Under the pieces are notes generated by a model, which saw nothing but the letters and a program-made list of their open reading frames with translations, was not told where the DNA came from and ran no database searches. Of a stretch of 64,000 nucleotides of DNA, positions 58,317 to 62,141 are shown piece after piece; within the stretch, counting starts at the first letter, position 1; each line of letters opens with the position of its first letter. The position numbers were made by a program, and so were the translations under genes. This DNA comes from Escherichia coli. Lineage in GTDB: Bacteria > Pseudomonadota > Gammaproteobacteria > Enterobacterales > Enterobacteriaceae. The stretch lies in assembly GCF_003334765.1 (NCBI RefSeq), contig NZ_QOWT01000009.1. One strand, written 5' to 3'.

Positions 58317-60413
58317 TTAGCGGAAATTGACGCTACGGTCGCTGGTCATGTCATACAACTGGAACTTACGCCCAAGTTGCTGACCACCGTCACGCGTCAG
58401 CGGCGTCCAGCCAATCGCCGCACGGCTGCGTGTCGGGCCAGACGAGAAGAGATCCAACGGTACCGAGACATACACGCCTTTGGTGAAGTCCCCTTCGCCG
58501 TACTCCTCTTTCGAAACATTAGTGATCGTGGCATAGCCACCCACCACCACGCCGCTATCAAAGCGTTTGGCGATCTCCAGCGTGCCGCCTTTATCCCCTG
58601 CCAGATACTGCCCGACGCTGGCTTTAACTAACACATCCTGAGCGAAAGATGGCGTCCAGTAGGCGGTCAGATGTCCGGTTTTCACGCTGTAGTCGGTGAA
58701 TTTCATCATATCTTTTGCACTACGCCAGTCGCGCTGTTTAACGTAGTTGGCATCCAGACCAAACGCCCAGTTGCTGTCCAGCGGGCGATACAACACTTCT
58801 GCCCCCGCACCGCCAAACATGGTTTCGAGATAACCACCGTAGACCTGACCGTAGAAGCCGTTGCCCAGATGCTGGAAGTAGTTGGCTTGCAGGTTATTCA
58901 CATAGACATCGTTCTGCACATACTCGCGCACATGGGTACGCACGCGCGGTAAGTGCGAGTCCTGCGGAGGATTAGTGTAGTTAAACTTGTCGTAGTTGTT
59001 GGCAAGATTTGCAAACAGGCTGCCGGTGGTCAGCAGATGGTCCGTCAGCCACAAATCTGCCGTTCCCATCACGCCCAGCTGATACATGTAAAAGTTTTCC
59101 GGGCCACCGACCGACTGGTTCAGCACCGGATCGATATGGAAATCAAAGCGTGATTTGTCGATATACCAGCCCTGCTCGGTGGACTGCGGAACCACTGGCT
59201 CGACGCGTTTTTGCGCCAGCGTCGTTTCGTGGCCCAACGGCTCTCCGGCGAGATGATTTTTCAGGCTGGCGACATCGGTTTCCGTCGTCACCTGCGGCAT
59301 GTTAAGGCGATTTTCCGTAATGCGGATCGTTTTGATCCCATCCGGCAGATCGTTCATCACGATCCGATTCGCACGGATGATCCCTTCGCGCGAATCACGA
59401 TATTTCACCTGCTCGCCGGTAACATACAGCGTATCGCCTTTCGCCTGGATCTGTGGATCGGCAAGTCCGGCATTGTATTTCAACAGCGTTAACTGATTCG
59501 CCACCACCGAATGCTGCAAAATGGCATCCTGCGGCTGCGGTTGATATTGCGGGCGGGCGTTATCGTTGTAAGACGGGCGCAGATCGTTAAAGTTGGTGCG
59601 CAACGTAACGCCAAACATAAAGGTGTTGCCACGTTCATAGCTAAGGTTAACGTCGGCCCAATCGGTAACGCGATAAATCGCACCGACGTTAAACTTACTT
59701 TTTTGCTCCAGCTTCCCGGCAAAATCCTGCTGATAATTATTGCCTTCATACTCCAGTTTCAGGCGCAGCGGTTGCCAGGGCGTCTGGTATTCCACGCCGC
59801 CAAACAGTGAGGCAGGACCGTGGAACATCTGGCTACCGTCGATAGATCCCGCCTGTTTGTAGCTGTTATCGCGATAGCAATATTTATCACTGGCTGAACA
59901 GAGCGGATTTTTCACATTACCGCTGGTGCCCAAATATCCCCAGCCCAGGCCGAGCGTAAAATCGAACGGCCCCCAGGCTTTGCTGGCAACAAGATATTCC
60001 GCATCAAACAGCCCCGTACCGCCGATATCCCGCGCACCAACCGCCACTTGCGGCAGCCAGTAACTCTCTTCCCACAAACGCAGTTTGAGATCGAAGGCTT
60101 TATCTTTATACGTTTGATCGCCAGAGAACGCTTCGACGCTGCTGTACTGCCGGGTGCGCACGTCGGTGTAGCGCAGCGTTGTTTCCAGCCACGGGAAGAG
60201 TTGCACTGAAGCTGAGTAATAACGGTACTGATCGTTATCGCGATAGTTCAGACTCAACTCCCCTTCCCGTGCCATACGCGCGGTGGGCGTTTGTAATAAT
60301 CCTACGCCACCGAAATCCGACTGCGACGGACCAATGGGCGCAGGATATGTTTCGCCGTAGCAAGCTGTGCTAATGCCCAGCGCCAGTAAGCTAAGCAGAT
60401 GTCTTTTTTTCAT
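58317..60413 (-). CDS. yjbH: Outer-membrane beta-barrel-like protein (GfcD/YjbH family)
   Basis: 698 aa ORF with signal peptide, ends with aromatic C-terminal residue pattern (..SVNFR); last gene of yjbEFGH. Confidence 0.85.
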
Positions 60414-61150
60414 TATTGAGGTATCCGCTGCGTCAGAGTCTGAAGAATGTCGGCGTTAAGGGCATCAGGCGTCTCACTCCAGACGGAGTCCGCGAGGCCA
60501 ACATAAATAATGCTGCCGGGCATCGGCTCTACGTGACGCTTGTTCCAGTAAGCCACCGGCGCTTTTTGCGTGCGTCCGTCCGGGTAAACCACCCACGCGT
60601 AGCTGCGATCCGCACCGCTGAGCAGGCTCTGGTCAGAGAGATAGCTCGCCACGTCGCGACCTGGAGTGAATGGCTGCTTGCCAGGACGGCTGATAAGCCC
60701 GAACAACGTGACCGTGGACGGCGGTGGTCCGACCCACAGCGTGTAGTTGCCCTGCAACGGCGGGTTACCGCGTTCGGCAACGCGGACGATATCGGGATCA
60801 AGATTGATTTTTTGCCTGCCCGTCACTTTCAACGCCTGAATTTGCTGGCGTAAGGCGTTAATCGCAGCGGCATCGTCGGCGCTGGAATCTGCGCCCTGTT
60901 CTGCCAGCCGTGTCAGCAACGCCTGCTGCTGACGCAATGCTGCCGCCGTTGCCAGCTCTTCGCTAATCACCGCACCGGGCCACCAGCTGTTTGCCAGCCG
61001 CGGTTGGCCTACCAGATCGATTAAATGCTCTGCGCCCGTTAGCGTTTTGGCCTCACTGCTGCCATTGCTGAACACCTTGACGGTTCCTGCCGCGAAGACC
61101 GATGACGCTCCCACACTCAAAAGCAACGCGACAATAGTTTGTTTAATCAT
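60413..61150 (-). CDS. yjbG: Periplasmic protein (GfcC/YjbG family)
   Basis: 245 aa from ATG 61148-61150 ([20 protein letters not shown]...); signal peptide. Confidence 0.8.
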
Positions 61151-61785
61151 TGTTTTGCCGCCTTGATGAGAGTGGTTTTCACCGGAAAATAATCCGCGCC
61201 GAGATACTGTTCCGACTGGCGAATTTGCCCTTCGCTGTCGATCCAATAGCGGTTATGCCAGCGCGCCTGGTCGGTGGAGACTTCTTCGTCCAGCACGCGA
61301 ACCGGGGTTTCATCGCTGCCGACTTTGACGGTATCGGTGCCATCCCATTTGAAGACTGAGCGTGCGGTGGCGTAGCGTACCTGCTGGTACTCGGTCCAGC
61401 CCATCGTGCGCGTCCAGCTTGCGCCATCAACGATTTGTGCGGGTTTAATCAGCGGGTCGGCAGCAAGGTTATTCACTTCAATCAGGTTGTCGCCGCCGAG
61501 CAGAGTCTTCACCAGACGGCCATGTTGGGTAACGAGAGTAGCCTGATCCTGAGTGACCCATTTTTGTTGTCCGTCTTCAGCGAAGGCCAGCACCACAAAT
61601 AACTGCGGCCCGCCATTAAGCTGCATGTACTGGCTGGCGTAGGGCATATTTTGAATATCATCATCCGTCAGCTGTACGCCTGGCGTGCCGAACAGACTGT
61701 CCCACAGTGAATTGCCCAGCTCTTTAGTCGTGGCTGAACAGGCCTGTAATAACAGGCAGATAAGAATGAGTGCAGGTCGCTTCAC
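61147..61785 (-). CDS. yjbF: Lipoprotein (GfcB/YjbF family)
   Basis: 212 aa from second GTG (61783-61785) giving MKRPALILICLLLQAC with lipobox Cys; track start 61815 is an upstream GTG. Confidence 0.8.
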   Translation of the reverse strand: MKRPALILICLLLQACSATTKELGNSLWDSLFGTPGVQLTDDDIQNMPYASQYMQLNGGPQLFVVLAFAEDGQQKWVTQDQATLVTQHGRLVKTLLGGDNLIEVNNLAADPLIKPAQIVDGASWTRTMGWTEYQQVRYATARSVFKWDGTDTVKVGSDETPVRVLDEEVSTDQARWHNRYWIDSEGQIRQSEQYLGADYFPVKTTLIKAAKQ

Positions 61786-61898
61786 GACTCTTCTCCAGAG
61801 GGGCAGAATAACCACACCGGAGTGTGGTTATGGTTAATCCCTTCATACTTCTAGCCACAGATGCAATGACTCGAATTATTTTGGGGATACATACTTTA

Positions 61899-62141
61899 TT
61901 ACTGGGTACTGGTGGTCGTGGTTGTGGTGGTCCCGGTATTAGAACCATCACCGCCACCGGTTGCCGCAAGCGCGACACCCACCGCCGAGCTTACGGTGCT
62001 GACGCTGGTCGCGGAGGAACTCCCCGCCGAAACCGACGTTGCTGCCGACCCTGCCGCTTCGCCCACCTGTACAGGTGCAGCCCACGCAGAAGTCGCCGCA
62101 AGCGCAGATATGGCAAAAATGCCATACAGAACTTTTTTCAT
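61899..62141 (-). CDS. yjbE: Small secreted Ser/Thr/Gly/Ala-rich low-complexity protein
   Basis: 80 aa ORF; signal peptide then [19 protein letters not shown]... ending [10 protein letters not shown]. Confidence 0.75.

Follow-up and report, generated by a model that had tools for sequence, protein, structure and literature searches.

The yjbEFGH operon of Escherichia coli, a core-genome paralogue of gfcABCD that may hand a glycan to the cell surface without an adjacent Wza channel

What does an outer-membrane module that is built like half of a capsule operon, but stands apart from any capsule export genes, carry to the cell surface? The question is raised by four genes, yjbE, yjbF, yjbG and yjbH, which occupy positions 58317-62141 on the minus strand of a 64,000-nucleotide stretch of Escherichia coli DNA (contig NZ_QOWT01000009.1; the whole stretch is referred to below as the window). 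We find that the locus is the chromosomal yjbEFGH operon of E. coli, which belongs to the core genome and is paralogous to gfcABCD, one half of the group 4 capsule operon. The overall best explanation of its function, to which we assign a probability of about 0.55, is that YjbF, YjbG and YjbH hand a glycan to the surface without an adjacent Wza channel; the identity of the operon is certain, and we infer its cargo and path by analogy.

The identity of the locus is readily established. Region 58000-62700 of the window matches one E. coli chromosome with 100% DNA identity and a K-12 derivative with 99.9%, and a copy covering at least 80% of it is found in 5414 of 5426 complete E. coli genomes. 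The RefSeq annotation of matching E. coli chromosomes names the genes yjbH, yjbG, yjbF and yjbE, and both the annotation and the open reading frames (ORFs) agree with the coordinates and gene content proposed in an earlier, sequence-only reading of this DNA. Pfam E-values ranging from 1e-33 to 1e-270, taken together with near-universal presence in the species, mark all four ORFs as genuine genes and not chance ones. An NCBIfam scan of the four Yjb proteins and of YjbT, the product of the next gene downstream, returned zero matches, but all four Yjb families are covered by Pfam.

In order of transcription, yjbE (61899-62141) encodes 80 amino acids matching PF11106 (E=5.5e-33), yjbF (61147-61785) has a GTG start and encodes 212 amino acids matching PF11102 (E=8.6e-64), yjbG (60413-61150) encodes 245 amino acids matching PF20616 and PF06251, and yjbH (58317-60413) encodes 698 amino acids matching PF06082 over the full length of the model (E=1.3e-270). 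The sequence-only reading had described the four genes as tightly coupled. For the last three this is correct: the junction sequences show an ATGA common to yjbF and yjbG, a 4-bp overlap, and a TAATG at the yjbG/yjbH boundary, a 1-bp overlap. The first gene, however, stands 113 bp away from the others, and the gap (61786-61898, minus strand) contains a conserved terminator-like hairpin, followed by a GGAG Shine-Dalgarno sequence and the GTG start of yjbF.

The closest known relative of this arrangement is gfcABCD, for which we used the locus of a K-12-derived genome. The two sets of four genes share their order, their Pfam families and the same 4-bp and 1-bp overlaps, and the small first gene is followed in each case by a hairpin-bearing gap, of 106 bp after gfcA and 113 bp after yjbE. 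At the protein level, identity is about 34% for YjbE/GfcA (over low-complexity sequence), 39% for YjbF/GfcB, 42% for YjbG/GfcC and 64.5% for YjbH/GfcD, so that the parallel with gfcABCD drawn in the sequence-only reading holds good. Overlaps of 1-4 bp have been described previously for homologous operons (Larson et al. 2021, PMC8592465). There are also clear differences. In the group 4 capsule locus the module is followed by gfcE (wza), etp and etk, whereas yjbT, psiE and xylE follow yjbEFGH; regulation of the yjb genes is by Rcs and osmotic stress and is not tied to the O-antigen capsule; and the product reported for Yjb is an uncharacterised, fucose-free exopolysaccharide (EPS).

Might yjbEFGH then simply be a redundant back-up of gfcABCD that works for one and the same pathway, that of the group 4 (O-antigen) capsule? 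The shared four-gene architecture and junctions and the 34-64% protein identity speak for this, but we consider it very improbable. The yjb operon is core in E. coli (the 5414 genomes noted above), has its own Rcs and osmotic regulation and has diverged deeply, with only 39-42% identity for the F and G proteins. Both loci coexist in the K-12 derivative, where an IS1 element (19327-20024 of locus L002 in our numbering) lies 88 bp upstream of gfcA, and yet yjb mutants of laboratory strains still show phenotypes. According to the published account, the gfc operon of K-12 is silenced by IS1 insertion, which fits with yjbEFGH being the only expressed copy of the module in that strain. Moreover, K-12 makes no O-antigen, and the group 4 substrate is thus absent. 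Mutations in yjbE, yjbF, yjbG or yjbH have been repeatedly recovered, as causes or candidates of the mucoidy that arises under Myxococcus predation, in sedimentation-resistant colanic acid overproducers and among phage T4-enriched transposon mutants, and disruption of the operon leads to Rcs activation and colanic-acid mucoidy (PMC8540638, PMC8117528, PMC7414163). These phenotypes indicate that the operon is not redundant with gfc and contradict the idea of full redundancy with no distinct phenotype.

The most conspicuous difference from the capsule locus is the missing export core. A tblastn search with GfcE, Etp and Etk (E<=1e-3) detected no homologue anywhere in the 64-kb window, which bears out the earlier observation that no wza/wzb/wzc-type genes follow yjbH. 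To judge whether this is peculiar to E. coli, we turned to relatives of YjbH. A search of 1.84 billion representative proteins gave 2661 related clusters, and 80 loci were compared from Enterobacterales, Vibrionaceae, Alteromonadales, Shewanella, Idiomarina and others, a gamma-proteobacterial sample biased towards relatives of E. coli YjbH. Throughout these loci, which come from many genera, F, G and H follow one another closely and in an unchanged order. When iterated profiles of Wza, Wzc and Wzb were used for searching, OPX or PCP genes turned up within 10 kb in 12 of the 80 (8 of 53 where the full 10-kb flanks were available) and in none of the other 68, and one further locus outside the 80 proved to be a bare four-gene cassette among housekeeping genes. 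Within this sample, therefore, the family usually lacks a linked export core, and E. coli is no exception. We rejected an E. coli-specific deletion or rearrangement as the explanation of the missing wza, as the same orphan layout is seen across Enterobacterales, Alteromonadales, Shewanella and others.

In the orf1-wbfDCB modules of Vibrio and the gfcABCD modules of Aeromonas, which lie in capsule and O-antigen loci, a homologous F-G-H trio is again preceded by a small Thr-rich ORF; sampled loci of this type come from Grimontia, Photobacterium and Vibrio (L047, L049, L056 and L067). These modules sit beside wza-wzb-wzc, often in divergent orientation, unlike E. coli yjb and 68 of the 80 sampled loci. 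That the module relies on partners encoded elsewhere, or carries a different cargo, as the sequence-only reading had supposed, agrees with these results and is already in print (PMC8592465, PMC9603273, PMC11494523).

The locus combines a PF06082 double barrel, an overlapping upstream gene of the GfcC family, a PF11102 lipoprotein with a lipobox and a small Thr-rich first gene. YjbF, the paralogue of GfcB/YmcC, is an outer-membrane lipoprotein precursor by its lipobox (LLQA-C, with Ser at +2 and acylation predicted), and it matches the GfcB/YmcC structure (PDB 2IN5) with E=3e-43. YjbG belongs to the GfcC family, carries a signal peptide, is predicted to be periplasmic and matches GfcC (PDB 3P42) with E=2e-55. 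Orthologues of YjbG are also picked up, though weakly (E=1e-5 to 1e-12), by a profile built from Wza, which at the level of sequence profiles is an independent sign of the known GfcC-Wza domain relationship. An AlphaFold2 model of YjbH built with 51 homologues (mean pLDDT 88.9, pTM 0.86) has a 12-strand barrel at the N-terminus, 13 long strands that form a second barrel at the C-terminus and, between them, an alpha/beta domain (about residues 300-390).

A pair of barrels within a single polypeptide, of which the C-terminal one has an odd number of strands (13), sets YjbH apart from the synthase-dependent polysaccharide porins PgaA, PelB, BcsC and AlgE and from the amyloid exporter FapF, to none of which it belongs at sequence level; nor is there a synthase, tetratricopeptide repeat (TPR) scaffold or amyloid subunit encoded near yjbEFGH. 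Molecular dynamics simulations of GfcD describe the same 13-strand C-terminal barrel and propose that it forms a lateral gate for a lipid-anchored polysaccharide, the lipid tails of which exit into the membrane (Fruet et al. 2024, PMC11494523). The likeness to LptD, the translocon of lipopolysaccharide, is one of proposed principle only, namely lateral opening of a barrel to release lipid tails into the membrane: LptD is not homologous to YjbH, the Lpt bridge partners have no counterpart here, and the opening was simulated for GfcD.

Among the YjbH homologues, many are about 1000 amino acids long (900-1400), with the YjbH region beginning at around residue 260-350 (for example P0123, P0125, P0126, P0152 and P0175). 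The N-terminal extension is consistent with GfcC-YjbH (GfcC-GfcD) fusions such as OtnG, of a kind noted previously by Larson et al. (PMC8592465). Some homologues have large insertions between the two barrels.

Further clues to function come from published work on expression. As summarised in many citing papers, Ferrieres et al. (2007) reported that the four yjb genes form an Rcs-regulated operon and that overexpressing them leads to an EPS that differs from colanic acid in lacking fucose and has uronic acid among its sugars (PMC5461412). Data from Salmonella show dependence on RcsA-RcsB (PMC5461412), and osmotic stress raises expression of the operon, whereas RpoS exerts negative control (PMC5461412, PMC3599342, PMC5105897). 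All four genes respond to colicin M, with log2 induction of 4.3-5.7, and they rise together, by 5- to 46-fold, upon treatment with a LolCDE inhibitor (PMC3599342, PMC5105897). For the protein complex itself, the relevant measurements are those made with the paralogues: GfcB pairs with GfcC (KD near 100 nM), and the resulting heterodimer associates with GfcD at the outer membrane (Larson et al. 2021, PMC8592465).

The mechanism that we favour can be put together from these elements. Under Rcs or osmotic stress, YjbE would be made along with a complex of YjbF, YjbG and YjbH at the outer membrane. If these proteins interact as their paralogues GfcB, GfcC and GfcD have been measured to do, a YjbF-YjbG heterodimer, tethered to the outer membrane through its lipoprotein subunit, would dock on YjbH at its periplasmic domain. 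The cargo would be a glycan, in all probability lipid-anchored and made by enzymes encoded elsewhere, which would then be passed through or alongside YjbH to the cell surface, with no need for a Wza-type channel next door. YjbE, which would be made in excess, may act as an abundant accessory or co-substrate, and failure of the module would produce an envelope defect that is sensed by Rcs.

Several points weigh against this mechanism. The operon encodes no glycosyltransferase, flippase or polymerase, so that changes in EPS could follow indirectly from Rcs activation. The lateral-gate model derives from a GfcD simulation in which lipid A was placed by hand, and what our YjbH model confirms of it is the count of 13 strands only. 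A fused YjbH-linker-YjbE model left YjbE unstructured, with no contact predicted between the two. Finally, co-induction of all four genes makes the hairpin after yjbE at most a partial terminator in E. coli, and the stoichiometry on which a role for excess YjbE depends is one that we infer.

The absence of biosynthetic genes from the operon is also the starting point for a different explanation, according to which there is no dedicated polymer at all. On this account the module would serve homeostasis of the outer membrane, or feedback, within the Rcs regulon by altering the organisation of outer-membrane lipids or lipoproteins, and all of the EPS effects, whether of overexpression, deletion or mucoidy, would arise indirectly through Rcs signalling and colanic acid synthesis. 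Loss of any yjb gene does lead to Rcs activation and colanic acid overproduction, and the module sits amid unrelated housekeeping genes in E. coli and in distant genomes. Against this, the module adjoins OPX or PCP genes in 12 of the 80 loci, YjbG shares domains with the polysaccharide channel Wza, and a fucose-free EPS distinct from colanic acid has been reported, as relayed by the citing paper (PMC5461412). On balance we regard an indirect origin of the phenotypes as unlikely, and glycan delivery by YjbFGH remains the explanation that we prefer.

Where does YjbE fit in? The 80-residue precursor has a signal peptide cleaved before AP, leaving a mature peptide of 59 residues that is rich in Ala, Ser, Gly, Thr and Val, contains no Lys or Arg and reaches a maximum 19-residue hydropathy of 1.24, which is not transmembrane-like. 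GfcA, in contrast, has a long hydrophobic Ala/Val/Gly stretch with a maximum hydropathy of 2.16. The C-terminal tail is as the sequence-only reading gave it, as the translated ORF confirms. Across Enterobacterales, the YjbE tail has exactly seven Thr in 30 of 31 sequences whilst every Thr codon varies synonymously, which points to selection on the peptide and not on a slippery DNA repeat. The suggestion that the tail is O-glycosylation-like or amyloid-like finds no support in either form: a fixed run of seven Thr (Thr7) looks like a specific motif and not like a variable mucin-like or slippage-prone repeat. Imperfect Q/N-rich repeats are the mark of amyloid subunits. YjbE has none, and the combination that characterises Fap- or curli-type amyloid secretion, a repeat subunit with a dedicated 12-strand or CsgG-type channel, is not found here. 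In the case of GfcA, it has been speculated that the Ser/Thr-rich protein is modified by O-antigen and directed to GfcD for export (Larson et al., PMC8592465).

A word-index protein search in which YjbE was the query gave no functional lead, as most of what it returned were truncated or frameshifted variants. Many such variants, of 46-64 amino acids and 100% identical over half the protein, are present in public E. coli and Salmonella assemblies (P0287-P0291, P0283-P0284); they may reflect frequent mutation in mucoid or laboratory-evolved isolates, or assembly errors in the run of Thr codons.

The small first gene is a near-constant companion of the trio. A YjbE-like ORF lies upstream of the F gene in about 70 of the 74 loci for which that region was available, with recurring parts: behind the signal peptide come a stretch rich in Gly, Ala, Ser and Thr, a hydrophobic one of Ala, Val, Gly and Ile, a patch rich in Asp, Asn and Gly and, finally, a tail rich in Thr. 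The Pfam YjbE model recognises only 6 of 30 of these ORFs. The mature peptides have almost no Lys or Arg, and the hydrophobic stretch resembles a membrane span in 42 of 71, GfcA included, but not in the YjbE type of Enterobacteriaceae (hydropathy 1.0-1.4). Alteromonadales, Rheinheimera and Arsukibacterium have a longer version (loci L045, L048, L051-L054, L058, L060, L062, L065, L066, L068, L072, L076 and L081) with an added module that contains two cysteines, C-x-G-D-D-x-L-V-D-G-x-C, and in many cases also a spacer rich in Pro, Asp or Gly-Asp; its tail of alternating Thr and Val ends in VPVTFTYAPT(V/L)Q and has a strand-like look. No Pfam family covers these longer ORFs.

The gap that follows the small gene is equally constant. 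In 69 loci a terminator-like hairpin is almost always present, often with a textbook GC stem and U-tract, and the best 36-nt hairpin averages -16.2 kcal/mol in the gap against -12.2 kcal/mol in windows of equal length inside the H gene; in 34 of these loci, no more than 1 of 20 control windows matched the stability of the gap hairpin. In E. coli the hairpin (61808-61831, minus strand) is AUAACCACAC-UCCG-GUGUGGUUAU, a perfect 10-bp stem with a four-base loop followed by UUCUG, and the whole gap folds at -33 kcal/mol (z=-2.9). A simple terminator scan did not call the E. coli hairpin, which has a U-poor tail, and given the co-induction of all four genes described above it could terminate transcription there only in part. 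Across Enterobacteriaceae (loci L003-L044), 24 of 24 genera have exactly this stem, UAACCACAC/GUGUGGUUA, while its flanks vary, and the loop is the extra-stable UUCG in all of the aligned genera except E. coli, where it is UCCG; the bases after it are UUUUG or UUUCG in the other genera as opposed to UUCUG in E. coli. The GGAG Shine-Dalgarno sequence and the GTG start of yjbF are likewise conserved. As DNA, the hairpin is a perfect palindrome with both arms invariant, which is more than base pairing alone demands and might reflect a bound factor. Taken together, the terminator-like hairpin after yjbE and the GTG start of yjbF suggest that YjbE may be produced in excess over YjbFGH.

A second hairpin lies upstream of the first in all of the genera except E. 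coli. Here the last codons of yjbE pair with downstream bases, and the pairing covaries with synonymous codon changes (GUACC/GGUAC, GCACCC/GGGUGU, GUACUC/GAGUAC and CACUCG/UGAGUG). It was found only by folding sequences one by one; RNAalifold applied to the yjbE-yjbF gap reported the invariant hairpin only, with no covariation score. In its place E. coli has an extra ~50 nt between the yjbE stop codon and the hairpin (~61833-61890, minus strand) that is missing from the other 23 genera aligned. On the other side of the hairpin, ahead of the yjbF start, three Citrobacter genomes (L004, L006 and L009) have an insertion of ~55 nt that includes a REP-like sequence (GCCGGGTAAGCG...CCCGGC). The gap thus tolerates insertions in Citrobacter as it does in E. 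coli.

Such a constant small gene raises the possibility that YjbE is itself the cargo. YjbFGH would then be a machine for secretion and assembly of a small protein, exporting YjbE through a FapF-like N-terminal barrel of YjbH so that it forms or primes a surface layer, and the polysaccharide phenotypes would be secondary, with the mucoidy of machine mutants caused by unexported YjbE piling up in the periplasm and triggering Rcs. In pilus operons, too, the gene for the major subunit typically comes before those for its export and has a hairpin after it. In addition to that hairpin being present almost everywhere, the presence of a YjbE/GfcA-type gene with the trio in nearly all loci, far more often than Pfam recognises, the protein-level selection on the seven-Thr tail, the lack of OPX/PCP genes nearby in 68 of 80 loci and the published finding that yjbE was the most strongly induced yjb gene in one mutant would all be in keeping with this. 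The similarity of YjbH to FapF is generic, however, with NanC, intimin, KdgM and autotransporter barrels scoring nearly as high, and YjbE lacks amyloid-type repeats.

To test for docking of the Thr tail, as an added strand, in one or other barrel of YjbH, we modelled the fused chain YjbH-(GGGGS)5-YjbE with AlphaFold2, using 18 locus-paired sequences. The YjbE part was coil (pLDDT 21-27), so that no YjbH-YjbE contact is predicted; with this shallow alignment, barrel confidence fell to 69.5 and the model is uninformative either way. The failure to dock does at least lend nothing to export of YjbE through the barrel. Genetic data are a further difficulty, as insertions or mutations in yjbE itself are also found among the mucoid or phage-enriched mutants (PMC8117528, PMC7414163, PMC8540638), which argues against accumulated YjbE as the trigger unless these mutations are polar on yjbFGH. 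The product reported for the operon also contains uronic acid, again according to the citing paper (PMC5461412). For these reasons YjbE as the cargo seems to us more doubtful than an indirect, Rcs-mediated origin of the phenotypes.

We give slightly less credence still to a broader version of this idea, in which the unit is a widespread and hitherto unrecognised outer-membrane system for tiny peptides that lack Lys and Arg, bear a signal peptide and end in a Thr tail (YjbE, GfcA and their Pfam-undetected relatives), and is not a polysaccharide exporter. Peptides with a Gly/Ala/Val-rich core would be made in excess from a gene followed by an attenuator, and would either be exported by the double barrel or be placed by it in the outer membrane, there to organise or anchor surface glycans; the invariant Thr7 tail would serve as a recognition or assembly motif.

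Glycan delivery, our preferred reading, assumes control by Rcs, and it is worth asking how much of this can be seen in the DNA. The pgi-yjbE intergenic region (62142-62639, minus strand; 498 bp) holds the yjbE promoter and regulatory DNA and has an AT-rich core at ~62200-62500, with a GC content of 26-37%. To call this an AT-rich region typical of envelope-stress promoters, as had been proposed, is a generalisation that the sequence does not sustain: the region is occupied as well by the pgi terminator hairpin (62455-62477, from a scan for terminator-like hairpins), by a REP/naRNA4 element downstream of pgi (62553-62623; Rfam, 79.5 bits) and by an antisense match to the enterobacterial small RNA (sRNA) STnc430. 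The RcsAB-box consensus, TAAGAATATTCCTA, has no match with three or fewer mismatches in 62142-62639, but it is degenerate and a site is not thereby excluded; the closest match upstream of yjbE is 10/14 at 62392-62405, and five matches elsewhere in the window are no more than expected by chance. Rcs control of yjbEFGH thus rests on the published expression data and not on the window sequence.

The STnc430 match (62338-62487, plus strand) is antisense to and divergent from yjbE, spans the full length of Rfam model RF02053 (72 bits against a gathering score of 47) and terminates at the hairpin that also serves as the pgi terminator. Directly upstream of it is a sigma-70-like site, ATAACA-16-TAAAAT (62304-62331, plus strand), the only such site that a simple promoter scan found in the intergenic region; the same scan found none on the yjbE strand. 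The predicted STnc430 promoter would overlap yjbE regulatory DNA.

At its other end the operon is closed by a terminator-like 11-bp hairpin (58276-58307, minus strand) that lies between yjbH and yjbT, two convergent genes 46 bp apart, and the RNA of 58240-58330 (minus strand) folds at -29.5 kcal/mol (z=-3.2). The wider setting is pgi on one flank and, on the other, downstream side, yjbT, psiE and xylE. Between psiE and yjbT there is a weak match to a REP/BIME-type element (naRNA4; 57857-57949, 29 bits, E=0.027), which is overlapped by a 47-amino acid ORF (57848-57991, minus strand) annotated by RefSeq as "hypothetical protein" that is probably not a real gene.

All of the elements of the sequence-only interpretation have already been published: the literature covers the paralogy, the overlaps, the missing wza-wzb-wzc, Rcs control, the fucose-free EPS, the two-barrel YjbH fold, the lateral-gate model for GfcD and the idea of a glycosylated cargo. 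The comparative additions made here (the orphan trio, the small gene with its hairpin, the conserved Thr7 tail and the shared upstream region) are incremental. The question of cargo is likewise a recognised one that is under study (Ferrieres 2007, Larson 2021, Solan 2021, Saidi 2022, Fruet 2024), to which this analysis adds no new handle. Nevertheless, the orphan state as the norm of the family, the near-universal small gene and hairpin and the protein-level selection on Thr7 may be of help in the design of experiments. The yjbEFGH operon is part of the Rcs envelope-stress response and is often hit by the mutations that render E. coli mucoid and phage- or predator-resistant, and knowing what YjbFGH moves would help explain both capsule anchoring and stress signalling.

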